In this document: in pieces, positions 5,763-46,368 of the stretch
Numbering within the stretch: the stretch's first letter is position 1
Layout: every line of letters begins with the position of its first letter
Source: an uncultured bacterium
Lineage (GTDB): Bacteria > Patescibacteriota > Minisyncoccia > Phycocordibacterales > Phycocordibacteraceae
Direction of reading: 5' to 3'
Length of the DNA stretch: 64,000 bases
NCBI GenBank assembly: GCA_903825105.1
Contig: CAIJZI010000006.1
Span: 1,399 to 65,398, forward strand
Made by a program: the position numbers and the translations under genes
The notes under the pieces: generated by a model
What the model was told of the DNA's origin: nothing
Databases searched by the model: none
What the model saw: only the letters and a program-made list of their open reading frames with translations

Positions 5763-5933
5763 ATGTCACAAGACCGCGTTATCCGCATGCAATCATCTGC
5801 ATCGAAACATTTAAGAATTATCCGCAAGAACAAGAAAAAAGTTGAGCGGAAAATACAACTTACTAAATACGACCCTGTCGCGAGGAAGCGTGCGGTGTAT
5901 AAAGAAATTAAATGGAAGGGAAAGGGCGGATAA
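5763..5933 (+). CDS. rpmG: 50S ribosomal protein bL33 (not in ORF track, 56 aa)
   Basis: ATG at ~5763 to TAA at ~5931-5933. Translation 'MSQDRVIRMQSSASKHLRIIRKNKKKVERKIQLTKYDPVARKRAVYKEIKWKGKGG' matches the bL33 pattern '…KNKR..PEKLEL.KYDPV.RKHV.YKE.K'. Confidence 0.55.
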   Translation: MSQDRVIRMQSSASKHLRIIRKNKKKVERKIQLTKYDPVARKRAVYKEIKWKGKGG

Positions 5934-5944
5934 ATAAACTCTGT

Positions 5945-7054: not shown

Positions 7055-7088
7055 GCATTTTAAATGTTGGACATCGGAAGTCCAACAT

Positions 7089-15267: not shown

Positions 15268-15810
15268 ATGAATCCAACCCAAACAGGTATCGCTGTAGCA
15301 CTCGCGCTCGTTGTTGTTATCTTCTTTTTCGTCTTTGACGGGATGTCATTGTTTCGTCAGTCGGCCTCAGCACCAACACAAGAAATAACAGCAACCACAA
15401 CTGATCAATCTATGGCTACAACTTCAACAAATTCTGTACAAGCAAATGTTACCGAACTCCAGATAACTGACGAAGTCGTCGGTACTGGCGCTGTGGCAAA
15501 AGCGGGCGACACAGTTGTCGTCGCATATACGGGTAGCTTCACAAACGGAAAAGTCTTCGACAGCTCAGTCGGGAAGGCTCCTATCGCAATCGTGACTTGC
15601 CCAAAGGGAGTCACGACCGGACTTTGTATGAATCTTGGCGCAGGGCAGGTGATTAAGGGTTGGGACGAAGGACTTGTCGGTATGAAAGAGGGCGGGAAGA
15701 GAAAGCTTGTTATCCCCGCATCGCTTGGGTACGGCCCAAATGACTATGGATCAATCCCGGGTAATTCGACACTCGTCTTCGAAGTCGAACTCATAAAAGT
15801 CGCGAAATAA
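15268..15810 (+). CDS. FKBP-type peptidyl-prolyl cis-trans isomerase (membrane anchored)
   Basis: 'GDTVVVAYTGSFTNGKVFDSS', 'GAGQVIKGWDEGLVGMKEGGKRKLVIPASLGYGPN' and 'GNSTLVFEVELIKV' are the canonical FKBP signature blocks. Confidence 0.8.
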   Translation: MNPTQTGIAVALALVVVIFFFVFDGMSLFRQSASAPTQEITATTTDQSMATTSTNSVQANVTELQITDEVVGTGAVAKAGDTVVVAYTGSFTNGKVFDSSVGKAPIAIVTCPKGVTTGLCMNLGAGQVIKGWDEGLVGMKEGGKRKLVIPASLGYGPNDYGSIPGNSTLVFEVELIKVAK

Positions 15811-15855
15811 CTTGGGTGTCCGACACCCAAGTAACTTGGAGGTCGGACCTCCAAG
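15811..15855. repeat. Double-hairpin palindromic element (GTCsGAC-core family), intergenic copy
   Basis: CTTGGGTGTCCGACACCCAAG-TAA-CTTGGAGGTCGGACCTCCAAG. The first unit is identical to the units inside leuS at 55443-55489. Confidence 0.75.
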
Positions 15856-15890
15856 TGGAAGGGAAGAAAAATAAAAAAAGAAAGGGCGCG

Positions 15891-18435: not shown

Positions 18436-20364
18436 ATGAAAAAATTTCACAATGCATTCCAATATCTAAACAATCGACCGATTCTTTTCGGTCTATTCGC
18501 CATGCTCCTTACGGTTATGTTCGGTATGTCGATCGCTTTTATGACAGGAATGGTTACTCCCAATCAAGTTTTGGCAGATGTTATTGGGCCACCTTGTTGC
18601 GAGCCTCCGGTTCCTCCTCCGCCGCCGCCTCCTCCACCTCCGCCACCAGTCCCGATAGTTCCGGTGCCAGTCATTCCTATACCTGTGCCAACTTGTACGC
18701 TCTCGGCGAACCCGACTTCACTGCCAGTTGGCGGTGGGACTTCTGTACTTGATTGGACAACGACCAATGCGACGAGTGCCTCGCTTAATCAAGGCATCGG
18801 CGATGTCGCGCCAATCGATGCAGGCTCGCAGTCTGTTTCTATCGCGACGGATACGAATTTCATCTTGACCGTTTCTGGCCCGGGAGGGCAGACGGCCTGT
18901 TCTGCTAATGTGACCGTTGCTACACCGCCGCCACCTCCTCCGCCAAATACCCCAGCCTGTACGCTTATTGCGAATCCAGTAGCGATTCAAACAGGGTCGT
19001 CATCGTCACTTTCTTGGACAACGACAAATGCGACTTCATTTACGCTCGACAATAATATCGGTGCGGTAACGCCTGTTGCTTCGGGGAATAAATCTGTTTC
19101 TCCAACCACGACCACGACCTACACTGGCACAGCAGTAGGCCCGAATGGTTCGGTAATTTGTACGGCGATTATTACGGTCACGACAACTCCGCCGCCACCT
19201 GGTGGCACTATCGCGTGTACCCTTTCTGCCGCGCCCCCGATTATAAATTCAGGCAATTCATCGGTACTTTCTTGGACAACGACTGGCGCGACTTCTTTCA
19301 TAATCGACAACAATGTCGGTGCATCGACACCGGTCGCGGCTGGAACCGTTTCTGTTTCTCCAACTGTTGACACAACTTATATCGGTACAGCGACTGGCCC
19401 TTATGGAACAATCACTTGTTCGACAACGGTGACGATGAATCACGGCGGTGGCGGGTGTACGAGTAATTGTGGCGGAGGCGGAGGTGGTTCGTCGCCGACA
19501 GTTGTGTTGTCCGCAGTTCCTCATTCGATCTCACAACCATTTGCCTTTTTGTATCTCTCTCAAATCCCGTACACCGGCCTCGACCTCGGCCCTGTCGGCA
19601 CCACTATTTATTGGATCGTGCTCATTCTTGCAGCTCTTGCGATAACCTACTTTGTCCTCTTTGGCATCGTGCCTTTTATAAATCGTTGGGCACACAACTT
19701 CACTGCGCGCGTCTCTGCGGCGATTAATGGTCCGGAAACAGTTACTGTTCAATCAGTTAAATCAGTTCCGTCGCCAGCACCAGCGCCGAAACCTGCGCCA
19801 GAAACTTCGCAAAATTCATATTCTTCATACAACGGATTCAAATCATTCGCACGAAACGGGGCACTCTCGATTGAAGATATCGTGAAGGGCTTGTCACAAG
19901 AACAGCTCTCGCCCGCGTCTGAAGTTTTCGAAGAAGAATCAGTCGGAGATATTGTTGAACAAATGCAACACGAAGAAGAGAAGATTGAGACATTTCAGCC
20001 GCCCGTTCAAGAGGTGACGACAACTGCAGACGCAGGCGCCGCTTCTGTCCGCGGTCTCGCCATCGCTCTTATTGAAGGTGATCGCGCAGCAGTGTTTGCC
20101 GGTCTCCGACAGCAGGTGCGCGGGGGAGGATCTCCGGAACAACTGATTAATTCGATCGTCTGTATTCTCGACGATGTGTACCGTGCGCGTGTTGACGGCA
20201 CGCCGTGTGACGCAGACATTGCGCGTCGAACCGCGCGTTTTGCTACGCCTCTTTTGGAAAAACTGGTCGTGTCGCTCACCACAGCAATCGATGCCAGCTA
20301 TTCAGACGAGATAACCGGAGCGAAGCTCGCCCTCACTCGAGCACTCGCTACTATTGGCGCATAA
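18436..20364 (+). CDS. Surface protein with poly-Pro stalk, three tandem ~85-aa Cys-bracketed Ig-like repeats, a second TM helix and a C-terminal cytoplasmic domain
   Basis: 'PPVPPPPPPPPPPPPVPIVPVPVIPIPVPT'. The repeats begin 'CTLSANPTS…', 'CTLIANPVA…', 'CTLSAAPPI…', each with 'W/DWTTTNATS'. 'IPYTG' lies just before the TM helix. Confidence 0.55.
   Translation: MKKFHNAFQYLNNRPILFGLFAMLLTVMFGMSIAFMTGMVTPNQVLADVIGPPCCEPPVPPPPPPPPPPPPVPIVPVPVIPIPVPTCTLSANPTSLPVGGGTSVLDWTTTNATSASLNQGIGDVAPIDAGSQSVSIATDTNFILTVSGPGGQTACSANVTVATPPPPPPPNTPACTLIANPVAIQTGSSSSLSWTTTNATSFTLDNNIGAVTPVASGNKSVSPTTTTTYTGTAVGPNGSVICTAIITVTTTPPPPGGTIACTLSAAPPIINSGNSSVLSWTTTGATSFIIDNNVGASTPVAAGTVSVSPTVDTTYIGTATGPYGTITCSTTVTMNHGGGGCTSNCGGGGGGSSPTVVLSAVPHSISQPFAFLYLSQIPYTGLDLGPVGTTIYWIVLILAALAITYFVLFGIVPFINRWAHNFTARVSAAINGPETVTVQSVKSVPSPAPAPKPAPETSQNSYSSYNGFKSFARNGALSIEDIVKGLSQEQLSPASEVFEEESVGDIVEQMQHEEEKIETFQPPVQEVTTTADAGAASVRGLAIALIEGDRAAVFAGLRQQVRGGGSPEQLINSIVCILDDVYRARVDGTPCDADIARRTARFATPLLEKLVVSLTTAIDASYSDEITGAKLALTRALATIGA
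18700..19450 (+). repeat. Three tandem ~255-bp coding repeats (inside 18436-20364)
   Basis: Repeated peptide blocks 'SxLxWTTTNATSxxLxxxIGxVxPxxxGxxSVSxxTxTxYxxTxxGPxGxxxC'. Confidence 0.55.
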
Positions 20365-21152: not shown

Positions 21153-22421
21153 ATGAGTGCGATATCTTTTGCGATAGAAAAGCGCGCGCCACTTCGTGGC
21201 GCGCGTGTCGGCATTCTCACCACGCCGCACGGCGTAATTCACACACCTGCTTTTGCGCCAGTAGGAACAAAAGCGAGTGTGAAAGGTATTTTGCCTAGTG
21301 AAGTCGCGAAGCTCGGTGCTGAAGTGGTGCTCGCGAATACCTATCACCTCTATCTTCAGCCGGGCGAGCAGATTGTGAAAGAGGCTGGTGGCCTCGCGAA
21401 GTTTATGGGCTGGTCGGACTCGTCTTCGCCTTTGGGCTCCGGCGCGGCGAAGCCAACCATCACCGATTCAGGCGGTTTCCAAGTGTTTTCGCTCGGTGCT
21501 GCTTTCGGCAAAAAAATCTCCAAATTTGATGGAATGAGGGATTTCGTAAATCCATCATCTGATAAACCAGTAATTTTTGACGAAGAGGTCGCGAGTCAAC
21601 ACGGCCAACTCGCGATTATTGACGACGAAGGCGTCTCGTTTACCTCGCACATCGACGGCTCGCTTCATCGCTTTACGCCAGAGCGATCGGTGGAGATTCA
21701 GCACGCGCTTGGGGCAGACATTTTCTTCGCTTTTGACGAATGCACTGCGCCAACAGAGACCTATGAATATCAGAAAGATGCTATGGAACGCACACATCGC
21801 TGGGCGGAACGGAGTTTGAAGGCACATCGACAAATGGAATATGCCCGCCTTCGTGAGAACTCCGGCGTGGCGAAGCAAGCAATTTTCGGCATCGCACAAG
21901 GCGGGCAGTTTGATGACTTGCGAAAGTTGAGTGCGAAGACAATCGCAGAAATGGGCTTCGATGGATTCGGACTCGGCGGATCGTTTAGTAAAAAGTATGG
22001 CGATGATTCTCTCGAATCAGCGCTTCAAATGCTTAAAGAATTGCCAGACACTATGCCAGTGCACGGCCTTGGTATTGGAGAGCCGGGCGATATCCTCGCC
22101 AGTATTGCCGCAGGTGTTGACCTTTTTGACTGTGTAGCGCCGACACGCCTCGGTAGACATGGCACAATTTATACTAAAAATGGTTTAGTTCATTTGAAAA
22201 ATGAAAAATATAGAAATGATTTTTCGCCACTGGGCGAATCAGGGTTTACCCATGCGTATGTATCGCATCTGATTAGAAGTGGGGAAATGCTCGGTGCGAC
22301 GATCGCCTCGATGCATAATCTGAAATTTATTTTGGATCTTGTCGCTCACGCGCGGCAGGCGATTTTAAACGATACTTTTGAGGAATATCGTGCAGATTTT
22401 GTAAATAAATATTATGGCTAA
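21153..22421 (+). CDS. tgt: Queuine tRNA-ribosyltransferase (with ~36-aa insertion carrying a palindromic repeat)
   Basis: 'TPHGVIHTPAFAPVGTKASVKG', 'LANTYHLYLQPG', 'TDSGGFQVFSLG', 'FAFDECT', 'LFDCVAPTRLGRHG'. 422 aa versus ~375 typical. Confidence 0.85.
   Translation: MSAISFAIEKRAPLRGARVGILTTPHGVIHTPAFAPVGTKASVKGILPSEVAKLGAEVVLANTYHLYLQPGEQIVKEAGGLAKFMGWSDSSSPLGSGAAKPTITDSGGFQVFSLGAAFGKKISKFDGMRDFVNPSSDKPVIFDEEVASQHGQLAIIDDEGVSFTSHIDGSLHRFTPERSVEIQHALGADIFFAFDECTAPTETYEYQKDAMERTHRWAERSLKAHRQMEYARLRENSGVAKQAIFGIAQGGQFDDLRKLSAKTIAEMGFDGFGLGGSFSKKYGDDSLESALQMLKELPDTMPVHGLGIGEPGDILASIAAGVDLFDCVAPTRLGRHGTIYTKNGLVHLKNEKYRNDFSPLGESGFTHAYVSHLIRSGEMLGATIASMHNLKFILDLVAHARQAILNDTFEEYRADFVNKYYG
21526..21562. 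repeat. Degenerate copy of the 'FVNPSS' palindromic element inside tgt (in frame)
   Basis: TGATGG-AATGAGG-GATTTCGTAAATC-CATCATC. Shares the 18-mer TTTCGTAAATCCATCATC with the uvrB copy. Confidence 0.5.
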
Positions 22422-24498
22422 TTTCAAATTACACTTACCGTTTCAGCCGGCGGGCGATCAGCCCGAAGCGATTAAAAAGCTGAATGAAGGCCTCAAAAAA
22501 GGCTTGCATCATCAAACACTTTTCGGCGTGACGGGGAGCGGGAAGACCTTCACGATGGCGAATGTTATCGCACAGAATGATAAGCCGACACTCGTCCTCG
22601 CGCACAACAAGACACTTGCTGCCCAGCTCGCGCAGGAGTATCGCGAATTTTTCCCCGAGAATGCGGTGCATTATTTCGTTTCCTATTATGATTATTATCA
22701 ACCAGAGGCGTACATCGCGCACTCTGACACCTATATTGAAAAAGAGGCGATGATTAATGCTGAGATTGATCGGCTTCGCCACGCTGCGACGCAGGCTCTG
22801 CTCACGAGGAAAGATGTGATTATTGTTGCGTCAGTCTCGGCGATTTATGGGCTCGGTTCGCCAGAAGAATATGAAAAAGTGCATGTGAAAATTGAAAAAG
22901 GTGCACCAGAAAATAGAGCTGCGTTAATCAGAAAACTGGTTGCCATTTATTTTGAGAGAACCAACGCCGATTTGAATCCAGGGCAGCTGCGTGCGATTGG
23001 TAACTCGCTTGAGTTTATGCCGGTGAATGAACGCGTCTTGTATCGCGTTGTCTTCGATGGTGATGCCATCTCGCGCGTCGAACAGCTCGACCCAGTCTCG
23101 CGTGCAAAAGTCGCGGAGCCACAGTCAATCTTCGTCTTCCCGGCGAAGCACTTCGTCACGAGTGAAGAAGAGCGAATCAGAGCGATTGAAGATATTAAAC
23201 TCGAGCTAGAAGAACAACTCGCGAAGTTTAAAAGAGAAGAAAAACCGCTCGAAGCAGAGCGACTGAAGCGCCGCACCTTAAGCGACCTCGCGCTGATTCG
23301 CGAGATCGGTTACACGAACGGCATCGAGAATTATTCTCGCCACTTTGACGGGAGAAAGGCGGGCGAGCCGCCATACACATTGCTCTCCTATTTCCCCAAA
23401 GATTTTTTAACTGTTATCGACGAGTCGCATGTGACCGTACCGCAGATTGGCGGGATGTATGCAGGAGATAGATCAAGAAAAAATGTGCTGATTGAATTCG
23501 GATTCCGTTTGCCGTCGGCGCTCGATAATCGTCCGCTTATGTTTGAAGAATTTGAAAAATGCGTGGGGCAAGTTATTTATACGAGCGCGACGCCGGGCGC
23601 ATATGAAAAAGCGCATTCTGAACAAGTCGTTGAACAAATTATTCGTCCGACTGGTCTTATCGACCCAGAGCTTATCGTGCGCCCTGTCTCTGAAGGCACA
23701 GAACCCATGATGGGTTTCGTAAATCCATCATCAAATGATGGATTTACGAAACCAAAATATCGAGGGCAGATTGCTGATTTTATCGACGAAGCAGAAAAGG
23801 TGATTAAAACGGGTGGGCGCGTTTTGGCTACAACACTCACCAAACAAATGGCAGAAGACCTCTCCTCATTCCTGCGCGATCGCGGCATCAAAGCTGAATA
23901 TTTGCATTCTGATATTAAAACGATTGACCGCATCGACATTCTTACCAATTTCCGCAAAGGTGATTTCGATTTACTCGTCGGCGTGAACCTGCTGCGCGAA
24001 GGGCTCGACCTGCCTGAAGTAGAGCTCATCGGCATTCTCGACGCTGACAAAGAAGGATTCCTCCGTAGCGAAGTTTCTCTTATCCAAACCATCGGTCGCG
24101 CCGCTAGAAATGTTTTAGGCCGCGTGATTCTCTATGCCGATGTGATGACGGGCTCCTTGGAGCGCGCCATCGGCGAGACGAATCGTCGTCGCGATATTCA
24201 GATCGCCTACAACACAAAGCACGGCATCACGCCGAAGACGATTCATAAAGAAATCCACGACATCGCTGCCTCAATGCGCACCGAGCATCAAAAGACGATT
24301 GATGAGTTGCTCGTCTTGGATACGATTGCGTATAAAGAAGATCCAAAAGAGTTTATAAAGAGAAAGAGGGAAGAGATGGCTGAAGCAGTCGAGAAATTGG
24401 ACTTCGAAACCGCCGCGCTTATTCGTGATGAAATTTATAAGCTTGAAGGCACCGGTCCCAAATCTAAAAAATCGCGCGGGCGAAGACTTTTGTCGTGA
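22414..24498 (+). CDS. uvrB: Excinuclease ABC subunit B
   Basis: 'GVTGSGKTFTMANVI' Walker A, 'HYFVSYYDYYQPEAY' beta-hairpin, 'EYLHSDIKTIDRIDIL…' helicase C region, C-terminal UVR-interaction helix. Overlaps the tgt stop by 8 nt. Confidence 0.9.
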   Translation: MANFKLHLPFQPAGDQPEAIKKLNEGLKKGLHHQTLFGVTGSGKTFTMANVIAQNDKPTLVLAHNKTLAAQLAQEYREFFPENAVHYFVSYYDYYQPEAYIAHSDTYIEKEAMINAEIDRLRHAATQALLTRKDVIIVASVSAIYGLGSPEEYEKVHVKIEKGAPENRAALIRKLVAIYFERTNADLNPGQLRAIGNSLEFMPVNERVLYRVVFDGDAISRVEQLDPVSRAKVAEPQSIFVFPAKHFVTSEEERIRAIEDIKLELEEQLAKFKREEKPLEAERLKRRTLSDLALIREIGYTNGIENYSRHFDGRKAGEPPYTLLSYFPKDFLTVIDESHVTVPQIGGMYAGDRSRKNVLIEFGFRLPSALDNRPLMFEEFEKCVGQVIYTSATPGAYEKAHSEQVVEQIIRPTGLIDPELIVRPVSEGTEPMMGFVNPSSNDGFTKPKYRGQIADFIDEAEKVIKTGGRVLATTLTKQMAEDLSSFLRDRGIKAEYLHSDIKTIDRIDILTNFRKGDFDLLVGVNLLREGLDLPEVELIGILDADKEGFLRSEVSLIQTIGRAARNVLGRVILYADVMTGSLERAIGETNRRRDIQIAYNTKHGITPKTIHKEIHDIAASMRTEHQKTIDELLVLDTIAYKEDPKEFIKRKREEMAEAVEKLDFETAALIRDEIYKLEGTGPKSKKSRGRRLLS
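23713..23753. repeat. 41-nt near-perfect palindrome inside uvrB, in frame (encodes 'GFVNPSSNDGFTKP')
   Basis: GGTTTCGTAAATCCATC-ATCAAAT-GATGGATTTACGAAACC: a 17-bp stem that falls in a region absent from E. coli UvrB. Confidence 0.65.
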
Positions 24499-25220: not shown

Positions 25221-27962
25221 ATGCCTAAAAAAACAGCAAAAGAATCCCTCGACGATGCTCGGGACAAGGAACACAATTTCAAGCACGGGAGCGACCCCGA
25301 CGCGCGACAAGCGGTCGGGGCTGACTGGCTTACCGTGAAGGGCGCGCGTACCCATAATTTAAAAAATATTAATGTCGAGATGCCACGCGGCGCGATGACG
25401 GTGATCACGGGCGTTTCGGGGAGTGGTAAATCATCGCTCGCTTTTGACACTATTTTTGCCGAAGGGCAACGACGCTATGTTGAATCGCTTTCTGCCTACG
25501 CGCGACAATTTTTAAATCAAATGGCGAAGCCCGATGTCGATGAGATCACCGGACTCTCGCCCGCGATTTCTATTGACCAAAAATCGCGTTCGAATAATCC
25601 GCGTTCGACGGTTGCGACGGTTACAGAAATTTATGATTACTTGCGTGTGCTCTACGCACGCGCCGGTCAGCCGTATTGCGTGAATCATGATGTGCCAATC
25701 GTACGACTTTCAAAAGAAGAAATGATTAAGATGGTTTTCTCGCGGATTGAATCGAAAAGGCACTTAGGAAAGACTTCAAATACGGATTCTGGAAGTCTGA
25801 CTTCTGAAGCGCCTGTGGTTATGGGCGTTGTGGTTGATAAAAGTGCGGTGACGATTTATGCGCCAGTCGTGGTAGGGCGCAAAGGGGAATATTATCAAAT
25901 GCTTTATGACCTGCTCGGGAAAGGTTTTGAAAGAGTGATGATCGACGGGAAGGTGCAGTCGCTACGCGAAAAAGTAATTCTTGATAGAAATAAAAGGCAC
26001 GATATCGACGCGATTGTCGACACGATTTATGTTTCAGAATTTATTCGCTCGACTGATGGCGCGCGCGAACGACTCTCTGAAGCGCTTGAGCTCGCGCTGA
26101 AAGAAACGGACGGCTTGGTGAAAATTGGCCACGCTGATGGCACACTCGAAACCTTATCGTCAAAATTTATTTGTCCTGAAGACGGCGCGTCATTCCCTGA
26201 GGTTGAACCTCGCCTCTTTTCATTTAACTCACCCTACGGCGCATGCCCAGAGTGTCACGGACTCGGCACCGAATCATTCTTCTCTGATGCTCCGTGTCCG
26301 GTCTGCGAAGGGAAGAGACTTCGTCCGGAAGCACTTCGTGTGTATTTAAAAAGTAAAAAAGATAAAACGCTCGGGAAAAATATCGTGGATTTTACAAACA
26401 TGTCGATTCGCGAAGCAAAAGAATTTGTCGACTCGATTGAACTTTCAGAAATGAAAAAGGATATCGCATTGCCGATTTTAAAAGAAATAAATAATCGCCT
26501 CACCTTTATGCTCGATGTCGGGCTCGATTATTTAACACTCAATCGAAGTGCTGCGACTCTCTCTGGCGGCGAGAGTCAACGCATCCGCCTCGCTTCGCAG
26601 CTCGGCAGTGGGCTCACGGGCGCTTTGTATGTGCTCGACGAGCCAACGATTGGTCTCCACCAACGCGACAATGACCGACTGATTAAAACATTGCTCACGC
26701 TGAAAGAGCTTGGCAATACGATTGTTATCGTCGAGCACGATGAGGACACGATTTATTCTGCAGATTATATTGTCGACATTGGTCCGGGCGCGGGTGTCCA
26801 CGGCGGCCGCGTAGTTGAGTCAGGATGGTTGGATGACCTTTTAACTGCCAAGAGCAATGAAACAGGCTCGTTGACTCTTGCTTATTTACGCGGTGAGCGG
26901 GAGATAGTAATGCCTGAGTCGCGACGCGAAGGCGAGCGCGGGTGGATCAAGGTGCGCGGAGCGACTTTGCACAATTTGGTAAATCAAAATATCGATGTCC
27001 CGCTTGGTAAATTGGTCTGCATCACGGGCGTTTCGGGGAGCGGGAAGTCGACCTTTCTCTATCATATTTTGCATAAAAACATTGACGCGCGATTCGGTAG
27101 GAAAGAGGCGAAGCTACAAAATGTCGCTTCGCTCACCGGTAGCGAATATCTCGGGCGCGCCGTTTTAATCGATCAATCGCCGATCGGCAGAACGCCGCGC
27201 AGCAACCCTGCGACCTACACTGGCGCATTCACGCACATTCGCGATCTTTTTGCCGCGACTTCTGAAGCGCGTGCGCGAGGCTGGAAGCCGGGCAGATTTT
27301 CTTTTAATGTTTCTGGCGGTCGCTGCGAAGCGTGTCAGGGCAATGGCTCGATCGCAGTTGAAATGCATTTCTTGCCGACGGTATATGTGACCTGTGATGT
27401 CTGCGAAGGAAAACGATTTATGAAAGAAACACTCGAAGTCACCTATCACGGGAAAAATATTTATGAAGTTCTCCAAATGACGGTTGAAGAAGCCGAAAAG
27501 TTTTTTAAAGATATTCCGGCAATTTCCGATCGTCTCGCCTCGCTGAATGCGACTGGCCTTGAATATTTAACACTCGGACAAAGCGCGACAACACTTTCGG
27601 GCGGAGAAGCACAGCGCGTGAAGATCGCGAGCGAGCTCTATCGGCCGATGCCGATGAAGACGATTTATCTCCTCGATGAACCAACGGTCGGTCTGCATTA
27701 TGAAGATGTGAAAAAATTGATTGAAATTTTGCAGGAGCTCGTACGCCGCGGCAACACTGTTGTTGTTATTGAACACAATCTCGATGTGATAAAAAATGCT
27801 GATTATATTATCGACTTCGGGCCCGAAGGCGGCGAAAAGGGCGGCAGAATAGTCGCGAAGGGCACGCCTGAAGAAGTTGCCGATACTAAAGGCTCCTACA
27901 CGGGCGAGTATTTAGCGAGAGTTTTGCATAACCATGGAAAAAAGCGATCTAAAAAAGTCTAA
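25221..27962 (+). CDS. uvrA: Excinuclease ABC subunit A
   Basis: Two ABC modules ('[15 protein letters not shown]', '[15 protein letters not shown]'); signature '[12 protein letters not shown]' / '[12 protein letters not shown]'; zinc-finger Cys pairs ('CPECHG', 'CEACQG'). Confidence 0.9.
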
Positions 27963-29253
27963 CCTACCGGACAGTCCCGGTATTTATATCTTCAAGCAGG
28001 GAAGAAAGATTTTGTATATCGGCAAGGCGACCAGCTTACGCGATCGTACGCGTTCTTATTTTGACGATGATTTAATCATTACGCGAGGCCCTCGCATTGT
28101 CGATATGGTGACGAAGGCCGATAAAATTTCGCATGAGGTGACGCCAACGGTGCTCGAAGCTCTTGTGCGCGAAGCGGCATTGATTAAAAAATATCATCCG
28201 ATAGCAAACACGGACGGCAAAGATGATTCAACATTTCTATATGTTGTTATTACGGAAGAAAAAATTCCGCGGGTGCTCACGCTTCGTGGCAAAGAAATTG
28301 ATTTTAAAAACCGAAAAACAATCGGCAAAAGGTCAGACCTTAATGCAAGTTCCTCAAGGTCTGACCTTAATCCGAGGCCGATTGTTTTTCGTGCGATTTA
28401 CGGCCCATTCCCGAGTGGTGCACAACTTAAAGAAGCTTTGCGAATTATTCGGCGCATCTTTCCATTTTTTGACACGCCGAAGCCTGTTGAAACAAAAAAT
28501 AAACATCAAGCGGCAAACATAGAGTTTAATAAACAGATTAAACAGTATCCGACTAATTTCGACGCTAAAGAATATCGCCGCACGATTCGGAGCGTGATGC
28601 TTTTCTTAAGTGGGCGCGCAAAAGATTTGAGAATAAAACTTGAAAAAGAAATGCACACGGCGAGCGAAGAAGAGCGATTTGAAGATGCTGCAGAACTGCG
28701 TCGACAACTTTTTGCATTGAATCATATACAAGATGTCTCGCTGATTAAGGATGAGAATCTTGAACGCAGCCCTTCGACAAGCTCAGGGCGATTCGCTTCG
28801 CGAATCGAAGCCTATGACACCGCGCATTTGTCTGGCACGAATGCGATTGGGGTAATGACGGTGGTCATCGACGGCACGCCAGTTAAAAAAGAATATCGCA
28901 CCTTTCGCATCCGTGGCAATGTGGGACTTCCGATGTCCCACATGAAAAACGACGATATTGCCTCATTAAAAGAAATTTTATCGCGTCGCTTTAATCATCC
29001 AGAATGGCAGTTCCCAGAAGTGATTGTCGTTGATGGTGGCAAGACACAGAAAAAAGCAGCAGAAGATTTTTTGAAAGAAAAGGATTTAAAAATTCCTGTC
29101 GTCGCGGTCGTGAAAGATGAAAGGCACCGCCCGCGCGAAGTCTTGGGCGCGCGTGTAGGGAAAATCTCTGAAGCAGACGCTGTTCTAGCGAATAGCGAAG
29201 CGCATCGATTCTCCCTTGTTCGTCACCGCCAAGCCCGCTCGCGTTTGGTATAA
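27934..29253 (+). CDS. uvrC: Excinuclease ABC subunit C, short form lacking the C-terminal HhH region
   Basis: GIY-YIG 'PGIYIFKQGRKILYIGKATSLRDR'; UVR helix 'EERFEDAAELRRQLFALNHI'; RNase H-like endonuclease region 'IEAYDTAHLSGTNAIGVMTVV'. 439 aa. Overlaps uvrA by 29 nt. Confidence 0.7.
   Translation: MEKSDLKKSNLPDSPGIYIFKQGRKILYIGKATSLRDRTRSYFDDDLIITRGPRIVDMVTKADKISHEVTPTVLEALVREAALIKKYHPIANTDGKDDSTFLYVVITEEKIPRVLTLRGKEIDFKNRKTIGKRSDLNASSSRSDLNPRPIVFRAIYGPFPSGAQLKEALRIIRRIFPFFDTPKPVETKNKHQAANIEFNKQIKQYPTNFDAKEYRRTIRSVMLFLSGRAKDLRIKLEKEMHTASEEERFEDAAELRRQLFALNHIQDVSLIKDENLERSPSTSSGRFASRIEAYDTAHLSGTNAIGVMTVVIDGTPVKKEYRTFRIRGNVGLPMSHMKNDDIASLKEILSRRFNHPEWQFPEVIVVDGGKTQKKAAEDFLKEKDLKIPVVAVVKDERHRPREVLGARVGKISEADAVLANSEAHRFSLVRHRQARSRLV
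28329..28370. repeat. Double-hairpin element (GTCwGAC core) in frame inside uvrC
   Basis: AAGGTCAGACCTTAA-TGCAAGTTCCTC-AAGGTCTGACCTTAA, which encodes 'RSDLNASSSRSDLN'. Confidence 0.55.
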
Positions 29254-33796: not shown

Positions 33797-34966
33797 ATGA
33801 ATCAGAATTCTTTTAATCAAAATTACTTATTAAACATGAATAAACCATCCGCTTTCCAAACCCAATATCCTTTAAGTCAGAAGAAGTTTTGGAAAAAAAT
33901 AATACCTAGTTTTATCTTTTGGTTTATTATTTCGGTTGGACTTGCGATCTTTCAAATAATTTTTGTCACACAGCTTTTTGGCGCATCAGATCTGATAGAC
34001 ATGGCTAATTTTATAAATATATCTCTCTTGGTATTTTATAGTGTAGTCGTAGTCTCTTTTGTAATCTATATTTTTTATATTAAAGCCTACATAAAAAGAT
34101 ATTATTACGATTGTGGTGATCAGTTTGTCACAATCAAAAAAGGCGTCTTCGCCCCAACTGAAATTCATGTTCAATATCAAAAGATTCAGGATGTTTATGT
34201 GGATCAAGACTTATGGGATAGAATAATGGGGCTTTATGATGTTCATATCGCAAGCGCCACTGTGACTTCTGGAATTGAAGCTCATATCGATGGGGTAAAT
34301 GTAGATGTGGCGGAAAATTTAAAAAATATAATTCTAGAGAAAATTCATGGCGGGAATAATCCACCATCTATACAAGCAAGTAGCGGTCAGCCACAAAGTC
34401 AACAGTCGAGCTCTGTTCAATTTGCTCAAAAAATTTCAAGCGATACATATCCTATCGACGGCGCGTGGGTAGTCTCAATGCTTGGCAGTTCTTTGTTTTC
34501 TGGGATCATTTGGTCTCTTATTATCATAGGCTGTTCTCTAGGTAATGTAGATTATCATTCTACTTCGATTTTTTTGATATTATTTTTGTCACTATTATTA
34601 ATAATATTTTTTTTCCGTCTCGTTTATTTGTTAATTTGGAAAAAGAATTACTATTTTGAATTTATGCCGGAGTATATCTTGCTTCGCACGGGAGTGATTA
34701 GTAAATCAGAAAATCACTTACCATATAAATCAATCCAGAATGTTTTAAATAAGCAAAGTATCTTAAATAGAATATTGGGATTATCAACTGTGATAATTCA
34801 AAACGCTGCACAACAAATGGTTTCTTCTCGCGGGCAAGCAATCGGTCAAGGATCCGCCATTTCTCTCGTTTGGCAACCTAAAGATAAAGCGGAAGAATTA
34901 AGCAATATGCTAAATGAAATTGTTACTAAAGCAAATGCTCAAAATTCAAATAGTATGGGGTTGTAA
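33797..34966 (+). CDS. YdbT-like membrane protein with two bacterial PH (bPH_2/DUF304) domains
   Basis: TM hairpins followed by 'FVTIKKGVFAPTEIHVQYQKIQDVYVDQDLWDRIMGLYDV', then again 'ILLRTGVISKSENHLPYKSIQNVLNKQSILNRILGLSTV'. Gene is AT-rich. Confidence 0.55.
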   Translation: MNQNSFNQNYLLNMNKPSAFQTQYPLSQKKFWKKIIPSFIFWFIISVGLAIFQIIFVTQLFGASDLIDMANFINISLLVFYSVVVVSFVIYIFYIKAYIKRYYYDCGDQFVTIKKGVFAPTEIHVQYQKIQDVYVDQDLWDRIMGLYDVHIASATVTSGIEAHIDGVNVDVAENLKNIILEKIHGGNNPPSIQASSGQPQSQQSSSVQFAQKISSDTYPIDGAWVVSMLGSSLFSGIIWSLIIIGCSLGNVDYHSTSIFLILFLSLLLIIFFFRLVYLLIWKKNYYFEFMPEYILLRTGVISKSENHLPYKSIQNVLNKQSILNRILGLSTVIIQNAAQQMVSSRGQAIGQGSAISLVWQPKDKAEELSNMLNEIVTKANAQNSNSMGL

Positions 34967-35003
34967 GATAATAACGAAAATCATTAATAATTATATCTAA
35001 CAT

Positions 35004-35711
35004 ATGCTTAACACTTACATAAGCATCTTTAAAAAATATACCGTTTTTGACGGCCGTGCAGGGAGAAGGGAATATTGGATATTTATGCTCACGAACATCG
35101 TTCTCTATTTTTTTATTGAGTTTGTATGCAACGTAATTGCTCTTTCTACGGAAATAATGTGGATTACCGATCTCTCGTATCTCTTTGTGTTAGTAATCCT
35201 TCTCCCGAGCCTTGCGGTACAGGTGCGCAGACTTCACGATACGAATCGTAGCGGATGGTGGATATTAATCGGTCTGGTGCCGCTTTTTGGCGTAGTAGTG
35301 CTATTAGTGTTCGGATTGTTGGATGGTGAATCCAAAAATAATACACATGATTCTCTTATCACACAAAATGGAATAACCGGAATAAATTCCGTGACACCCC
35401 TGAATTCAGTTGTTCCTATTCAAAAAACAGGTTCACCGCTATCAAAGATCACGGCGATTACTTTTAGCGTCATCGCTTTCATTGCTTCTGGCGTCCATAT
35501 CTTGTTCGCTTTGGTATTCATTGTTTTTTGTGACAGTGGACCCGTGTCTCGATGTCTCAAATTTTCTAGTGTAGCGATGCTCTTTTGTTTGACGGAAGTT
35601 TCGGTGGCTATCACTGCTCTGGTGATGGTGAACAAAAAAACAAAGCTTGCATTACTTCTTTCTCTGCTTTCTATGATAATAGCTTTAGGATCTTTGGCAT
35701 TATTAAATTAA
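35004..35711 (+). CDS. DUF805-family inner-membrane protein with extra C-terminal TM domain
   Basis: 'FDGRAGRREYWIFMLTNIVLYFF' (GRxxRxEYW motif) and 'RLHDTNRSGWWILI'. Confidence 0.55.
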   Translation: MLNTYISIFKKYTVFDGRAGRREYWIFMLTNIVLYFFIEFVCNVIALSTEIMWITDLSYLFVLVILLPSLAVQVRRLHDTNRSGWWILIGLVPLFGVVVLLVFGLLDGESKNNTHDSLITQNGITGINSVTPLNSVVPIQKTGSPLSKITAITFSVIAFIASGVHILFALVFIVFCDSGPVSRCLKFSSVAMLFCLTEVSVAITALVMVNKKTKLALLLSLLSMIIALGSLALLN

Positions 35712-35712
35712 T

Positions 35713-36135
35713 ATGAAAAAGTTTTTAAATAAAACATTCAATCTCGCGGGTCTTTTAAGAGGGTTTTTAACAGGGGTAACGATCGGGCTGCTTCTATTCT
35801 TTCTTATAATTATTATCGGAGGATTAAAAGTAATTGAATCTGACGCTATATCTTTTATCTTTTACACAGTAACATTTCTTCCGGCTATCATTTTAGCGAT
35901 TTTAAAAGCGCGATCCAGCCCTGCTAAAATAAGCGAAGGTATTAAAAGATGGGTTGACTCAACAAGATCAGTTACCAATCTTAGTTTCGCCGCTGGTTCT
36001 GGGTTTGCGGATTCACTATTCCCAGAACAAATTACCATCAAGAGATTTCTTATAGAAACAATTTATTGGTTAAGCATAATAGCTTTTGTTATCTGTTTGA
36101 ATATGGCGGCATACTATGTGTACAGTAATCAATAA
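35713..36135 (+). CDS. Hypothetical membrane protein
   Basis: Four hydrophobic segments. Start is adjacent to the previous stop (operon). Confidence 0.4.
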   Translation: MKKFLNKTFNLAGLLRGFLTGVTIGLLLFFLIIIIGGLKVIESDAISFIFYTVTFLPAIILAILKARSSPAKISEGIKRWVDSTRSVTNLSFAAGSGFADSLFPEQITIKRFLIETIYWLSIIAFVICLNMAAYYVYSNQ

Positions 36136-36398
36136 TTAATCATCATTCTGAATTTATTTTTCTTTTTAAACAAAAACAAGCATTTAAAGCGCAAATAGTG
36201 TAAATTAAAAAGATGTTGAAAATTGGCATAGTGTGAACACTATCTGCCATCACTCTGGGTTAGAAAGAGAGAAACGCATCCCATTTTCATTTGTTATCAA
36301 GCTCCCTCCTCCGGATCATCGGACGGTAAAGCGAGCATTAAGAGAACTTCCTGTTTCCTAACCCTATATACCGTCAGGAAGCAGGAAGATGGTTCGGG

Positions 36399-37556
36399 TT
36401 GTGGCATACTTTTCCTATGGAGACCAAAACTCCTATCGAGCCATCCCTTCGTGCTCGTCAGCATTATTCCGATTTGTACGACAAGCACACGGTCGAGCAT
36501 TGCCGCTGGTGGGAGCAACATTCTCCGACGGTCGAGGATCTGAGGAAGGGCTGGACCAAGAAGGATAAGAAATTTGATGAGAAGGAGGCGCTGCGCACAG
36601 CCAATGCCTTTGGTCGTATGCACATGTATTTCATTAAGGGCGACCGTTATATCAAGAAAGACCAGACAATTAGGGAATGGATGGAGAGAGACGAGCAAAG
36701 AGACCGATTCTTTGAGGCCGCTAGTGCTCCCGAGAATATAAACTGTTTGACCTGCGGACGGCTCATGTTTGTGGGTTCAAAACATCTCCATAGCGGAGGA
36801 TTGAAGGAGCCCGATCGCATTCTATTTTTCTACGAGTGTCCGCTAGAGCATTTTCCGCTCAGAGCTTTCTATGACAATGGTGAGGAATTCAGGCGAGAAA
36901 AACCTCTTTGTCCCAAGTGCGGTGCAGCAGTTGTAGAGGAAGACAAAACTGCCGATGAGAAGTTCACCACCATCATCACCTGCTCAAAATGTGGCCACAC
37001 GGAGACGAGCGAGATAGAGCGTACGGTGAATAAGCCAGATCCGAACTTTGATAGAGATCGTGCTCGCTTTTGCCTAACAGAAAAAGAAGGCCAAGAATTT
37101 ATCCAAGGCCAAGAGAACATTAAAGGGCTAGCAAAGCTCATGGATGAAATAGAAGAGAAAAAGAAGCATAAGGATACCTATGACAAGGTGGCAAAATTAA
37201 AGAAGCTGAAAATCATTGAACTCGAAGAGTTGCTCACCCCTGTTCTCGAGAAGGCCGGGTACATCAAACTCCAGCTGAAGAACCCCGAGATCACCAAGGA
37301 CGTGATTGTTCCGTTTGTTGTGTATGAAAAGCGACCGGATAGAGAGGGGCGTGCAAGCACCTACGAGCTTGAGAAGCTTCTCAGGAAGACGCTCCTGGAG
37401 ACAAATTGGCGACTTATGACGGATGGCACAACTTACCGTTTGGGCATGCTAGAGGGGCGTTTTAGAGGCTATGAGAGGGAAGAAGACCTACTTGAGCTGG
37501 TACGGACCAAAGAAAAAAGAGAGGCGAAGCGAAAGAATGGTGAGGCTGGTAATTGA
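36399..37556 (+). CDS. Hypothetical protein with three CxxC zinc-ribbon-like pairs and a Lys/Glu-rich C-terminus
   Basis: 'CLTCGRLMF', 'CPKCGAAV', 'CSKCGHTE'. First gene of the accessory block. Confidence 0.45.
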   Translation: MWHTFPMETKTPIEPSLRARQHYSDLYDKHTVEHCRWWEQHSPTVEDLRKGWTKKDKKFDEKEALRTANAFGRMHMYFIKGDRYIKKDQTIREWMERDEQRDRFFEAASAPENINCLTCGRLMFVGSKHLHSGGLKEPDRILFFYECPLEHFPLRAFYDNGEEFRREKPLCPKCGAAVVEEDKTADEKFTTIITCSKCGHTETSEIERTVNKPDPNFDRDRARFCLTEKEGQEFIQGQENIKGLAKLMDEIEEKKKHKDTYDKVAKLKKLKIIELEELLTPVLEKAGYIKLQLKNPEITKDVIVPFVVYEKRPDREGRASTYELEKLLRKTLLETNWRLMTDGTTYRLGMLEGRFRGYEREEDLLELVRTKEKREAKRKNGEAGN

Positions 37557-37833
37557 GAGATTTCTACGGATTTACGTCCGAAACGAGGCTTTACAGGCAC
37601 TTTTATCCTAATTAATCTGAATCAATCCGAAAAAAGTGAGCATTTAAGCCGTATTCAAAAACCACAGTTTAAGAAAAAGTGCTCAAAAAGGCACTTTTAC
37701 TGCTATTTTCGTGTAAAAAACGTGTATTTTTGTGTCATTTTTTGCTACTTTTAACCACTCAGAGAAGTGACGTTATAAAACACATCATGCACAAAATTGG
37801 TGTCAAATATGGAAAAGTCCTATACTTCTTGTA

Positions 37834-39915
37834 ATGGACACAAACGGCAAGTATCTGAGAACGACTCTCGAAGCGCTTCATTTGGAAGATGCGACAGAAG
37901 TTGCAGAGACCACAAGAAATGCTTCTAACATAGTTGGTGCAATAATTTCTGCTTATGGTGGCACCACTGAGATCGGAATAGATCGTATAGCAGTTCCTCC
38001 CGGTCCTGCAACAGGGTTGGTTTATGGCCGTATACAGAGTGGTAAAACTCGAGCTATGATCGCAAGTACTGCTCTGGCTTTTGATAATGGTTTCCGAATC
38101 TCAATAGTGATGACGAGTAACATTAATGATCTGGTAAGTCAGACACATCTAGATTTTTCAAGTGGATTGCCAGGCGTGATGACTTTTACGAAGGACAATG
38201 ATTTCGACAAAGAAGTTGCAAATACAAAGGTCCAAATGGAAAAAGGTGATGCACGACTGTTGATCGTTTGTTCAAAGGGCGCGGGAAGTCTCCAAAACGT
38301 TTCTGCTTTCCTCAGAACTATAGGAGGCGAAAATTATCCAGCAATAATTTTTGACGACGAAGGAGATCAGGCTTCCTTAGATACTAACACTCATCGTCGT
38401 TCCTCTGGTGCTGCGCTTGCTCCGAGTAGTATAAATCAAATCATTCAGTCGCAACTTCGAATCGCATTAACACGTCATGTGTACGTAAGTGTGACAGGAA
38501 CACCACAAGCTGTCCTTCTTCAAAGCGCTGATGCTAGTCATCGCCCATCATTTATTGTTATGTTGCCTCCAGGTGCTTCCTATATCGGCGGCGACCACTT
38601 CTTTGGGAAAGACGAGCCGGAAGATAATGAAGACCATCTCGTTAGTATTATCGAGCAAAACGAGAAGGAAGAAATTCTCAATGACGCCGCGCCTATTCCT
38701 AACGGACTACGACGCTCAATCCTATTTTTTCTTATAGCTTCTGCAGCAGCTATCAAAAATAAAGGTCCTCAGGAAAAGGGTTATTCCTACCTGTGCCACC
38801 CTAGTCTTAAAAATATTGAACAGGATCGTGCTGAAGCTAGAATAAACACGTTTCTCACTGAGATTACTGAAACATTGCTGGATAATAATGAGAACGCAAT
38901 TCTTCGAGAATTACGAGAAGCTTATGAGGAGTTAAAACGGACGCTTGGAGAAGAGACTCCAAATTTTGATGAACTGAAAGGGATTGTACGTCAACAATTG
39001 GCAACACGACGACTGCTGGTGATTAACGCAAAAATAAAACGCCAGGGTATCGCATACGGGGGAGGACTGAATTTCCTTATAGGAGGTAACACTCTCGGAA
39101 GAGGTATCGCCGTAAAAAATCTTCTCGTAACCTACTACGTACGCGATTCCAAAATGTCTCAGATTGATACTATGCACCAGCACGCTCGTATGTACGGGTA
39201 TCGTTCTGCAACCCTGAAATATACAAAGCTGTATATTCCGCGTCATCTGTACTATAGATTCCGTGACATTCATTTTTCTGATACTGATCTTCGGAACTTT
39301 ATTGATGCTCATAAAGATGACCTCCCGTCGTCTTTCCCAGTCGAGTACACAAATGTCTTAAGAGCAACCCGTCCTAGTGTATTGGATGCTGATAAGACTG
39401 ACACACTACGACCCGGTCTTCAGATCTACCCTAATTATGTGGTCGTTCCTCAGCCTTCGATTAAATACGCGAATGTGCTAACACGTATTCGTTCGCACCT
39501 CGGTTTTACTACTGAGCTAGAGAATGCAATGGCGGAAACTGGTCGGGCAGGAGTCACCATAACAAGAGACGAGGCTATTGAGCTTGTAGAGATGATAAAG
39601 ACGCGATCACAAAATACGTGGCGTGATAAAACTATTGGGGCCGTTATAACAAAAGTCGCCGAGAGAATGGGAGATAGTGTGACTTTGAAGTTTAGAACCG
39701 CAGAGCGTACTGTCCGCGAAGACGGCTTTATGTCGACTGGTACATTGTCTGGTGATGAACTGACACAGGCACGTGGGGCTACCATACCCACACTATGGAT
39801 CATGGCTGTACACACGACACCGGATAGCGCCGCCGGTGCTGGCCAACAGTTTATGTATCCCACTTTTGTGATACCCGAGAGTCTTGGTAGCCTTTTCATT
39901 TTCAACAAAGGGTAG
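37834..39915 (+). CDS. Z1-domain-like P-loop protein (a family often found next to Dcm-type methyltransferases)
   Basis: 'GLVYGRIQSGKTRAMIASTALAFDNGFRISIVMTSNINDL' Walker A-like motif; 'AIIFDDEGDQASLDT' DE(G)D Walker B-like motif. 693 aa. The Z1 assignment is from memory of the Pfam Z1 pattern and needs an HMM check. Confidence 0.5.
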   Translation: MDTNGKYLRTTLEALHLEDATEVAETTRNASNIVGAIISAYGGTTEIGIDRIAVPPGPATGLVYGRIQSGKTRAMIASTALAFDNGFRISIVMTSNINDLVSQTHLDFSSGLPGVMTFTKDNDFDKEVANTKVQMEKGDARLLIVCSKGAGSLQNVSAFLRTIGGENYPAIIFDDEGDQASLDTNTHRRSSGAALAPSSINQIIQSQLRIALTRHVYVSVTGTPQAVLLQSADASHRPSFIVMLPPGASYIGGDHFFGKDEPEDNEDHLVSIIEQNEKEEILNDAAPIPNGLRRSILFFLIASAAAIKNKGPQEKGYSYLCHPSLKNIEQDRAEARINTFLTEITETLLDNNENAILRELREAYEELKRTLGEETPNFDELKGIVRQQLATRRLLVINAKIKRQGIAYGGGLNFLIGGNTLGRGIAVKNLLVTYYVRDSKMSQIDTMHQHARMYGYRSATLKYTKLYIPRHLYYRFRDIHFSDTDLRNFIDAHKDDLPSSFPVEYTNVLRATRPSVLDADKTDTLRPGLQIYPNYVVVPQPSIKYANVLTRIRSHLGFTTELENAMAETGRAGVTITRDEAIELVEMIKTRSQNTWRDKTIGAVITKVAERMGDSVTLKFRTAERTVREDGFMSTGTLSGDELTQARGATIPTLWIMAVHTTPDSAAGAGQQFMYPTFVIPESLGSLFIFNKG

Positions 39916-39961
39916 GATTGTCCCTCTCGAGTTTTCTCCCAATTAGTTCTATAATGGGCAC

Positions 39962-41050: not shown

Positions 41051-41175
41051 TCGTGGACCTATCACCGACCTCCCTCAGAGATGATGGTGGAGTATACAAC
41101 TTGTGTTCTCGAATGACCTCGATTATTTATACAATCGCGCAAAATGTCATAAACGGCCTTTTCTGCTAGGATTAC

Positions 41176-42168: not shown

Positions 42169-42169
42169 T

Positions 42170-43243: not shown

Positions 43244-43248
43244 TCAAT

Positions 43249-44340: not shown

Positions 44341-44345
44341 TATTT

Positions 44346-45623: not shown

Positions 45624-45718
45624 CAAGCGCGTTCTTGCTTAATCCGGCGTCGGAAATTATTAAAACTTGCGGGACTGGACCTGGGCGATACGTTAGAGAT
45701 TTGACAGGCAAGGTGATT

Positions 45719-46087: not shown

Positions 46088-46122
46088 ATGACAAGTATAC
46101 TTGGTAGAAGGATAGTTGTCAT

Positions 46123-46359
46123 TTGCCCATACTCAGAGGTATGGGGAAGCACCCGCCAATCGTGCCTAAATTCGCCAGGAAGCTCAGGAGCGAGCGTGAA
46201 GAACGTGGTTTTAGCCAAGAGTCTTTAGCGACCGCAGCAGGCCTGAGCCGGAACTACATAGGCATGATTGAACGTGGGGAGTCCAATCTTACTCTCGGTA
46301 CAGTCGAGAGGCTGGCACGAGCTCTTCGTATGGAGAGTTGGGAACTTCTCAAATTTTGA
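46123..46359 (+). CDS. XRE-family helix-turn-helix transcriptional regulator
   Basis: 'FSQESLATAAGLSRNYIGMIERGESNLTLGTVERLARAL' is the HTH_XRE consensus. Confidence 0.65.
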   Translation: MPILRGMGKHPPIVPKFARKLRSEREERGFSQESLATAAGLSRNYIGMIERGESNLTLGTVERLARALRMESWELLKF

Positions 46360-46368
46360 TAGTCTATC

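Follow-up and report, generated by a model that had tools for sequence, protein, structure and literature searches.

Palindromic elements that lie inside genes are reported from several bacterial lineages. The Rickettsia palindromic elements (RPE), whose description is credited to Ogata et al. in 2000 and 2002, reportedly sit in frame in conserved genes, uvrB among them; they are said to be read through as extra peptide segments and to form several families within one reduced alphaproteobacterial genome. RPE-1 is said to measure about 100-150 bp, and RPE-4 and RPE-6 reportedly carry a CGTC tag. The mobile GC clusters and "byp" elements of yeast mitochondria, credited to Lang et al. in 2014, are likewise said to be short palindromic mobile inserts in the protein genes of a compact genome. 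Repetitive extragenic palindromes (REPs) also occur intragenically in several phyla, often as head-to-head dimers coding for 20-30 amino acids; they favour uvrA, uvrB, recBCD, polymerases, tRNA synthetases and tRNA-modification genes, differing REPs are found at about one recB site in two Xanthomonas species, and the CGTC type has no known transposase (Di Nocera et al. 2013, PMC3733652). REPINs are inverted pairs of REPs mobilised by RAYTs (Bertels and Rainey 2011, PMC3116915; PMC3337134). We here describe a palindromic repeat, called FVNPSS after its peptide, in uvrB and tgt of an uncultured bacterium of the Patescibacteriota. "The window" is the whole stretch of 64,000 nucleotides that was analysed (contig CAIJZI010000006.1), and coordinates refer to it unless a relative's locus (L and a number) is named.

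Anatomy, sites and dispersal of the repeat

The anatomy is derived from fifteen copies aligned on their centres. The basic unit is a 25-nt hairpin, which consists of ATG, a stem, a loop of 3-7 nt, the complementary stem and CAT; in the FVNPSS family it reads ATGATGGrYTT-CGT-AArYCCATCAT, and the stem comprises 9-11 bp. The FVNPSS element is made of two units inverted head to head with a joint of 1-3 nt, which yields a near-perfect palindrome of 51-54 nt. The copies in uvrB, tgt, miaA and the gene of glutamyl-tRNA synthetase (GluRS) are inverted dimers joined in this way. Similarity between copies ends sharply at the unit boundaries.

The copy in uvrB is intact. Its core, GGTTTCGTAAATCCATCAT-CAA-ATGATGGATTTACGAAACC, consists of two 19-nt arms of 100% complementarity around a 3-nt centre and translates as GFVNPSSNDGFTKP; the first-pass annotation had recognised this palindrome, yet had called it near-perfect and given it arms of 17 nt only. 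The full element comprises a left unit (23707-23731, ATGATGGGTTTCGTAAATCCATCAT), the CAA centre (23732-23734) and a right unit with a degenerate outer end (23735-23759, ATGATGGATTTACGAAACCAAAATA), and translates as MMGFVNPSSNDGFTKPK. The RNA of this region is predicted to fold with -39.1 kcal/mol (z = -8.3 against shuffles), and single-stranded DNA of the palindrome with -20.3 kcal/mol (z = -7.7). The encoded segment had been presumed to be missing from the UvrB of E. coli, and it falls into a gap of all solved UvrB structures: the window's UvrB has 24 residues (SEGTEPMMGFVNPSSNDGFTKPKY) after the conserved VRP that none of them has. At the DNA level, the gene is 54 nt (18 codons) longer than alleles that are empty at this place, counted from VRP to YRGQ.

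The copy in tgt is a decayed one. The window's Tgt is 100% identical to a database protein (P0121). Its gene shares with uvrB the 18-mer TTTCGTAAATCCATCATC, which is exact at 21542-21559 and at 23715-23732 and recurs with one mismatch in the other arm; with up to three mismatches allowed, the window contains 3 matches, where 0.08 would be due to chance; none of 100 shuffles has as many. The similarity of the two copies extends about 26 nt upstream of the 18-mer (ATGAnGGnTTTCG...) and resumes downstream of it, if in-frame gaps of 3 and 9 nt are granted. The left unit still forms a small DNA hairpin of -6.9 kcal/mol; about 24 nt of the right unit are gone when compared with the full dimer of relatives. 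Two of these, L081 and L093, have the full dimer at this very site (tgt site 1) between identical flanks (KISKF... and ...FDEEVASQHGQLAII), and the only gaps that separate the window copy from full ones measure 3, 9 and 24 nt, all multiples of three. Since a fuller palindrome is held by a relative at the same site, the degenerate copy noticed on first pass is indeed a decayed one, which has lost most of its right unit via in-frame deletion.

The surroundings of this copy require a correction. From FQVFSLG to the EGV(S/T)F block, the window's Tgt is some 40 residues longer than the solved Tgts of Z. mobilis and others, and an insertion of about 36 residues had been ascribed to the repeat. It is missing from the solved enzymes, but a segment of about 36-40 residues is present in all Tgts of the candidate phyla radiation (CPR) examined, down to 60% identity, and thus an old lineage-wide feature; only about 9-13 residues of it (MRDFVNPSSDKP) stem from the repeat. 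Similarly, uvrB and tgt are housekeeping genes, but neither is known to be essential, as had been stated.

A further tgt site, site 2, has no insert in the window; L081, L091 and L093 hold exactly 54 extra nt of the FVNPSS family there. It is the place where canonical Tgt has its zinc-binding CxCxxC. Around it (about 22215-22262) the window's Tgt reads PLGESGFTHAYV and is devoid of this motif, which is a feature of the lineage; relatives have palindromic singlets and dimers of many types at the exact spot of the lost CxCxxC.

The closest relatives of the window's UvrB and Tgt belong to metagenome bins of Candidatus Kaiserbacteria / Paceibacterota, with at most 88% and 79% identity, respectively. 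Near-identical copies of 43-53 nt were found at six places: in uvrB (the window, L081, L082, L084), at tgt site 1 (the window, L081, L093), at tgt site 2 (L081, L091, L093, L094), in miaA (orthologous copies in L087 and L088), in the GluRS gene (L089, with a copy of L085 at the corresponding position of an ORF resembling an aminoacyl-tRNA synthetase) and in an unannotated open reading frame (ORF) of L086. An exact-pattern scan of metagenome contigs added five copies, four of them on separate contigs of one sample. L081 at its tgt site 2 and L093 at its tgt site 1, which are not orthologous, carry one and the same 43-mer, GGACTTCGTAAGTCCATCATCTGATGATGGACTTACGAAGTCC, and the variants GGACTTCGTAAGTCC and GGGTTTCGTAAATCC are also common to non-orthologous sites. 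This sharing of variants argues that the sequence has moved between sites and that a local origin would not suffice. The proposed family of palindromic elements, in frame in conserved genes, thus extends over six sites in independent assemblies. All 15-16 copies lie inside ORFs; with a coding density of 93%, this location by itself carries no weight.

The ORF of L085 (2939-3448, minus strand) is peculiar in its own right. In it, a GluRS-like segment (NQRWMRLLSDEAF, also present in the L089 GluRS) is combined with an HGTP_anticodon domain, which is characteristic of class II synthetases. The contig stops within this ORF, which may represent a chimera or a rearranged gene beside the repeat.

Single units exist as well. 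A scan of 266 kb of Kaiserbacteria DNA for the pattern ATG-6-7-6-CAT, with no more than one stem mismatch, yielded 17 units, as opposed to 0-1 in shuffles. Four are in the window: its FVNPSS-family copies, one each in uvrB and tgt, plus two singlets related to them. One of the latter, between two convergent genes, folds as a DNA hairpin of -10.2 kcal/mol (z = -6.8); the other one, in uvrC, encodes a peptide type that is also found at Tgt site 2 of relatives. Other types of palindrome at the uvrB site of relatives follow the same plan, for instance ATGTTGGACAT-ATC-ATGTCCAACAT plus its inverted partner in L091. The idea that the "half" copies of relatives are all products of deletion had to be dropped: many are single 25-nt units. 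The features of the window are compiled in Table 1.

Table 1. Repeat-related features of the window, with the evidence for each
Feature	Position	Strand	Evidence
tgt, host gene of the decayed copy	21153-22421	+	ORF list; solved Tgt structures, E ~1e-84
Intact left unit of the tgt copy (tgt site 1), ATGAGGGATTTCGTAAATCCATCAT, read MRDFVNPS	21534-21558	+	unit scan; holds the shared 18-mer
Right-unit remnant of the tgt copy (C-TGAT-AAACCA)	21559-21569	+	pairwise alignments to L081, L093 and the window uvrB copy
Empty tgt site 2 (between GAA and TCA at 22238/22239, PLGE/SGF)	22236-22241	+	codon-level comparison; survey of 120 Tgt relatives
uvrB, host gene of the intact copy	22414-24498	+	ORF list; full-length match to solved UvrB structures, E ~1e-229
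FVNPSS element in uvrB, head-to-head dimer	23707-23759	+	unit definition and census
Perfect palindrome core (19-nt arms, 3-nt centre)	23713-23753	no strand	repeat I7
Single superfamily unit between two convergent genes, ATGTTGGAC-ATCGGAA-GTCCAACAT	7064-7088	no strand	unit scan
Single superfamily unit in uvrC, ATGTGGGAC-TTCCGAT-GTCCCACAT, read NVGLPMSHM	28919-28943	+	unit scan

Filled and empty alleles, mirrored arms and the open frame

The 120 closest proteins were surveyed for both UvrB and Tgt. About 40% of the UvrBs have no insert at the site (VRAVSETGKYKGQ). Four have the same type of insert as the window (P0002, P0050, P0068, P0088), and the remaining ones display other short peptides encoded by palindromes, such as SLSPTVVRDNEH, GHPMSRPEVGHRM, DLRGPTTDVGPRR or DISCPTSNVGHDMS. 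Between VRP and GQ(I/V), empty alleles measure 42 nt, also in distant CPR lineages, and filled ones 81-102 nt; three relatives with the window's type are 51 nt longer than the empty alleles. Conservation of the segments in distant homologues, which the first-pass annotation had named as the finding that would speak against it, is not seen: the solved proteins and the distant CPR UvrBs are devoid of them, as is the said share of the close UvrBs.

Both tgt sites behave in a similar way, with many types of palindrome, singlets, dimers and empty alleles among the 120 Tgts, and two places in UvrC do likewise. A single type can occupy different genes in different genomes, as exemplified by GACCTCGGAGGTCC, which is found in uvrB of L090 and at tgt site 2 of L084. 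Homogenisation within genomes, i.e., one type of palindrome per genome, was considered and rejected; L084, L090 and L091 differ between uvrB and tgt. The flanks of filled and short empty alleles are correlated: SE[..]SGFT goes with GESGFT and SE[..]GGEFT with SEGSEFT. Such correlation suggests that inserts can be cleanly lost as well as gained.

The uvrB of a Campbellbacterium (L002, 3182-3235), which belongs to another CPR family and whose UvrB is 67% identical, carries a small palindrome, ATTCGGACGT-CGC-ACGTCCGAAT, at the same site, with 12 nt added. The proneness of this site to palindromes therefore reaches beyond Kaiserbacteria.

In the long helix of the dimer (20 pairs, 300 cells), 97.3% of the cells are paired; 12 of the 20 pairs are altered on both sides, and not one of the 300 cells shows a one-sided change (G-U). 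The symmetry of the arms is not attained by any of 500 shuffles. In the helix of the single unit only 81.5% of the cells are paired, G-U included, which marks the dimer as the conserved object, in line with what has been argued for REPINs. The peptides obey the same rule: in 23 protein copies from UvrB and Tgt, the paired residues are N/F, S/L or R/R; F/K, I/M or V/T; and G/P or D/S, with 0 exceptions. As these swaps follow reverse complementarity, and as most of them are non-conservative, the peptide is a passenger of the DNA, and the constraint acts on the latter. Even the centre is found inverted between orthologues, SSNDG versus SFDDG, in miaA (L087/L088) and in uvrB (the window/L082).

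The reading frame is equally restricted. Two of the three frames of the element contain TAA or TGA, and the palindrome offers equal frames in both orientations. Every copy, seen as DNA or as protein, uses the sole open frame; insert lengths are without exception divisible by three, and the decayed copies, too, have kept the frame. The constant use of the open frame together with these lengths favours translation over splicing or ribosomal bypass, and the copies are probably read through as extra protein loops. The placement of the insert in a surface loop of UvrB is based on the alignment gap against the solved structures and on general knowledge of the fold; an AlphaFold model, built from a shallow alignment of relatives with 84-90% identity, had a mean pLDDT of 40 and was discarded.

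A probable mobile hairpin and its rivals

What, then, is this repeat? We consider it, with reasonable though by no means full confidence, a short non-autonomous DNA repeat of the type represented by REP/REPIN and RPE, which forms a hairpin and is tolerated in permissive loops of proteins. Copies would be placed, presumably on single-stranded DNA by an enzyme, at few places in housekeeping genes. They would persist where a surface loop or linker is permissive, presumably without consequence for the host; their lengths are multiples of three, and they occupy the only stop-free frame. The ribosome would then read a loop of 17-18 residues, M-x-[GD]-F-V-[NS]-P-S-S-[ND]-D-G-[FL]-T-K-[PS]. At the DNA level the arms remain strictly complementary and the centre can flip. 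One unit can drop out by in-frame deletion, as has happened in the window's tgt.

Some points weigh against this reading. Translation and mobility are deduced from the sequence. No transposase of any kind was found: in Pfam scans of 20 unannotated ORFs of the window, the sole such hit was a serine recombinase that lies in an unrelated island, and a Y1/HUH transposase (RAYT, PF01797) is seen neither in these ORFs nor in gene tables that cover some 200 kb of the relatives' loci, which make at most about 6% of any genome visible. The flanks of the fifteen aligned copies contain neither a target-site duplication nor a clear target motif. The copy number seen is low, with 2 copies in the 64 kb of the window; FVNPSS copies outside tgt-uvrB are missing from the same 200 kb. 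In a neighbour-joining tree of UvrB the filled and empty states are interleaved, and its star-like shape does not allow gains and losses to be counted. The same few sites are refilled over and over by different types of palindrome, which random transposition does not predict, unless permissive sites are strongly selected or hairpins are targeted. We suspect that repeated insertion into few tolerated loops, targeting of existing hairpins and remodelling in situ all contribute.

Other searches were equally silent. No Rfam family matches at or near the elements. The peptide of the element, used as a duplicated 44-aa profile, gave 13 candidates that share words with it and no match in the protein search, and two scans of viral contigs gave none either. 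A scan of metagenome contigs with UvrB contributed two useful relatives only (L001, L012), the rest being generic UvrB patterns.

The strongest rival, although rather unlikely as the whole story, is genesis in situ. The palindromes would be made and remade locally by errors of hairpin-templated replication, and neither a mobile element nor an enzyme would be needed: template switching would perfect and extend quasi-palindromes, a single unit would be duplicated in inverted form, copying would occasionally be ectopic, and the sites would simply be those where growth is tolerated. The perfection of the arms and their exclusively mirrored changes fit this mechanism. So does the coexistence of a singlet and a dimer with a shared right unit at one tgt site (SNVGRGTSYMGGE versus SKCRDVVRPTSDVGRTTSYMGGE). 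There are also palindromes in conserved coding sequence without any insertion (the N-terminus of Tgt; TPAFVPVGTKAGV in L082), and in uvrB of L081 the codon of a conserved tyrosine, TAT, has become CAT, which lengthens the palindrome. Finally, the window is about 5-12 times richer in palindromes than its shuffles, on account of which a genome-wide process that favours palindromes may act beside mobility. Local growth, however, cannot generate one sequence of 43-53 nt with sharp ends at six unrelated places of different genes and genomes, nor does it account for the variants GGACTTCGTAAGTCC and GGGTTTCGTAAATCC that non-orthologous sites have in common. It may well act on top of mobility; alone it is insufficient.

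The palindromes in uninserted parts of Tgt lie at 21183-21205 of the window (an N-terminal hairpin, RAP..GAR), at 6253-6305 of L084 and at 8752-8791 of L082. In the last one, arms of 18 nt encode the universal TPAFVPVGTKAGV motif, and a change from S to G lengthens the palindrome. They hint at a mutational bias toward perfect palindromes.

A slightly less likely and bolder idea is mentioned as a speculation. The places that are filled again and again, in uvrB, tgt, uvrC and elsewhere, would be persistent "hairpin slots", the contents of which are actively exchanged or regenerated by mirror copying of DNA, and a transposase of the RAYT type would not be involved in these reduced CPR genomes. 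Fold-back synthesis could convert a singlet into a perfect inverted dimer, or one palindrome type could replace another in a hairpin-targeted swap. If so, we would face a self-renewing palindromic replicator that lives mainly in coding sequence and repeatedly rewrites short surface loops of conserved enzymes.

That the hairpin serves the host in cis, be it as RNA (an RNase III site, a stabiliser of mRNA, a translational pause) or as DNA (a signal for replication or transcription), appears improbable. Of course, strong conservation with covariation, the high predicted stability of the hairpins and the filling of the same sites in many lineages would be in line with selection. Yet no hairpin is present at the site in many Tgts and in about 40% of the nearest UvrBs, and the window's tgt copy has lost its hairpin while the gene is intact. 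The complete lack of G-U among 300 cells is unusual for a selected RNA helix, Rfam has no match, and the host genes are functionally unrelated. Still more doubtful is a peptide module FVNPSS...GFTK that is kept for protein function and has the palindrome as a by-product. It is always in frame and recurs in several enzymes that handle nucleic acids. Its residues, however, are swapped only in reverse-complement pairs (N/F, S/L, F/K, I/M, G/P, D/S; 23 of 23), mostly non-conservatively; wholly different peptides occupy the site in close relatives, and many have none. The AlphaFold model is too poor to inform on the loop. The least probable view, that the hairpin is cut from the mRNA or skipped by the ribosome like a translational bypass element, can invoke a compact and very stable hairpin within a coding region, but every copy is a multiple of three, stop-free and in the sole open frame, and even decayed copies that no longer fold are still in frame.

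Other palindromes are found nearby. A second family has a 23-nt unit, ACTTGGGTGTC-C/G-GACACCCAAGT, and the same dimer plan as FVNPSS with another consensus. It forms inverted doublets in frame in leuS, the gene of leucyl-tRNA synthetase (55442-55490), and in an unannotated ORF of 380 aa (5912-7054, at 6162-6209); two tandem units are intergenic (15810-15856). The uvrC gene (27934-29253) contains, apart from its single 25-nt unit, a nested palindrome at 28312-28391 with outer arms CGAAAAACAATCGGC/GCCGATTGTTTTTCG and AAGGTCAGACCTT twice inside; the UvrC of L094 has unrelated extra sequence at both places. The window further contains a region of low GC (about 34000-52000; 0.36-0.44 versus about 0.48) that is free of palindromic units and encodes a Z1-domain protein, a cytosine-type and an EcoRI-type methylase, a GmrSD/HNH nuclease, a DUF2130 protein, an AAA_25 protein and a large serine recombinase; the region has probably been integrated as a mobile or defence island. 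At 18436-20364, a predicted secreted protein of 642 aa has long runs of proline and three repeats of about 95 aa (CTL.A.P..I..G.SS.LSWTTT.ATS...).

Comparison with described repeats

Of the systems mentioned at the beginning, the RPE resemble FVNPSS in residing in frame in conserved genes and leaving the ORF intact; in our case, 54 extra nt in uvrB contain no stop, and the same holds for the five other sites. FVNPSS lacks a CGTC tag, its hosts are Kaiserbacteria/Paceibacterota, and it is not known to be related in sequence to RPE-1 to RPE-8. The byps are said to be passed over by the ribosome and may lie out of frame. As every FVNPSS copy is in frame and stop-free, which distinguishes it from the byps, read-through rather than bypass is to be expected. 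Miniature inverted-repeat transposable elements are more remote. In these, a non-palindromic core of 70-300 bp is framed by inverted repeats of 15-30 bp at the termini, and the target site is duplicated; the FVNPSS element, with its 51-54 nt, is palindromic throughout, and the flanks of 15 copies contain no such duplication.

In a broad sense the 25-nt unit is a REP, a term that covers imperfect palindromes of 20-40 nt which form a stem-loop and recur dispersed in a genome; it is stable as DNA, and 17 units occur in 266 kb. REPs, however, are extragenic, whereas all 15-16 FVNPSS copies are intragenic and just one related single unit is intergenic (7064-7088). The intragenic REPs of the GTAG and CGTC types come closer. 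They too are hairpins of about 25 nt with stems of 8-11 bp, occur in ORFs mostly as head-to-head dimers, and prefer uvrA/uvrB and the genes of tRNA synthetases and tRNA modification. The differences are the ends of the FVNPSS unit, ATG...CAT, which are part of the stem; the lack of a GTAG or CGTC tag in the aligned copies; the patescibacterial (CPR) host; the confinement of the family to genes, as far as seen; and the re-use of sites by many types of sequence, which is far more extensive in the relatives studied here. With the REPINs FVNPSS shares the design of two inverted units that form one long hairpin, better kept than that of the single unit, and, in our reading, the status of non-autonomous mobile DNA. 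REPINs are extragenic, number hundreds per genome, have a longer spacer and depend on a single-copy RAYT transposase, the gene of which usually has the repeats on its flanks; the spacer of FVNPSS is 1-3 nt, its copies are intragenic and few, and no RAYT is seen.

The interpretation offered on first pass is, therefore, right in substance: the kind of element is known, and FVNPSS represents it with a new family from a new phylum. The literature that we searched contains no description of translated palindromic repeats in CPR, and such repeats, hitherto represented by RPE and intragenic REPs, would now extend to this radiation. The classes of host genes, i.e., excision repair, tRNA synthetases and tRNA modification, are those already met in Proteobacteria and Verrucomicrobia; the bias thus recurs and can be tested across very distant phyla. 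There is also a practical side. Inserts of this kind inflate the apparent divergence of CPR proteins and can mislead their alignment, phylogeny and domain annotation. The strictly mirrored evolution of FVNPSS provides unusually clean evidence that a constraint on DNA structure can dictate amino acid substitutions in conserved enzymes, since G-U states are absent, residues are swapped in pairs, centres are flipped and many types of palindrome occupy one and the same site.

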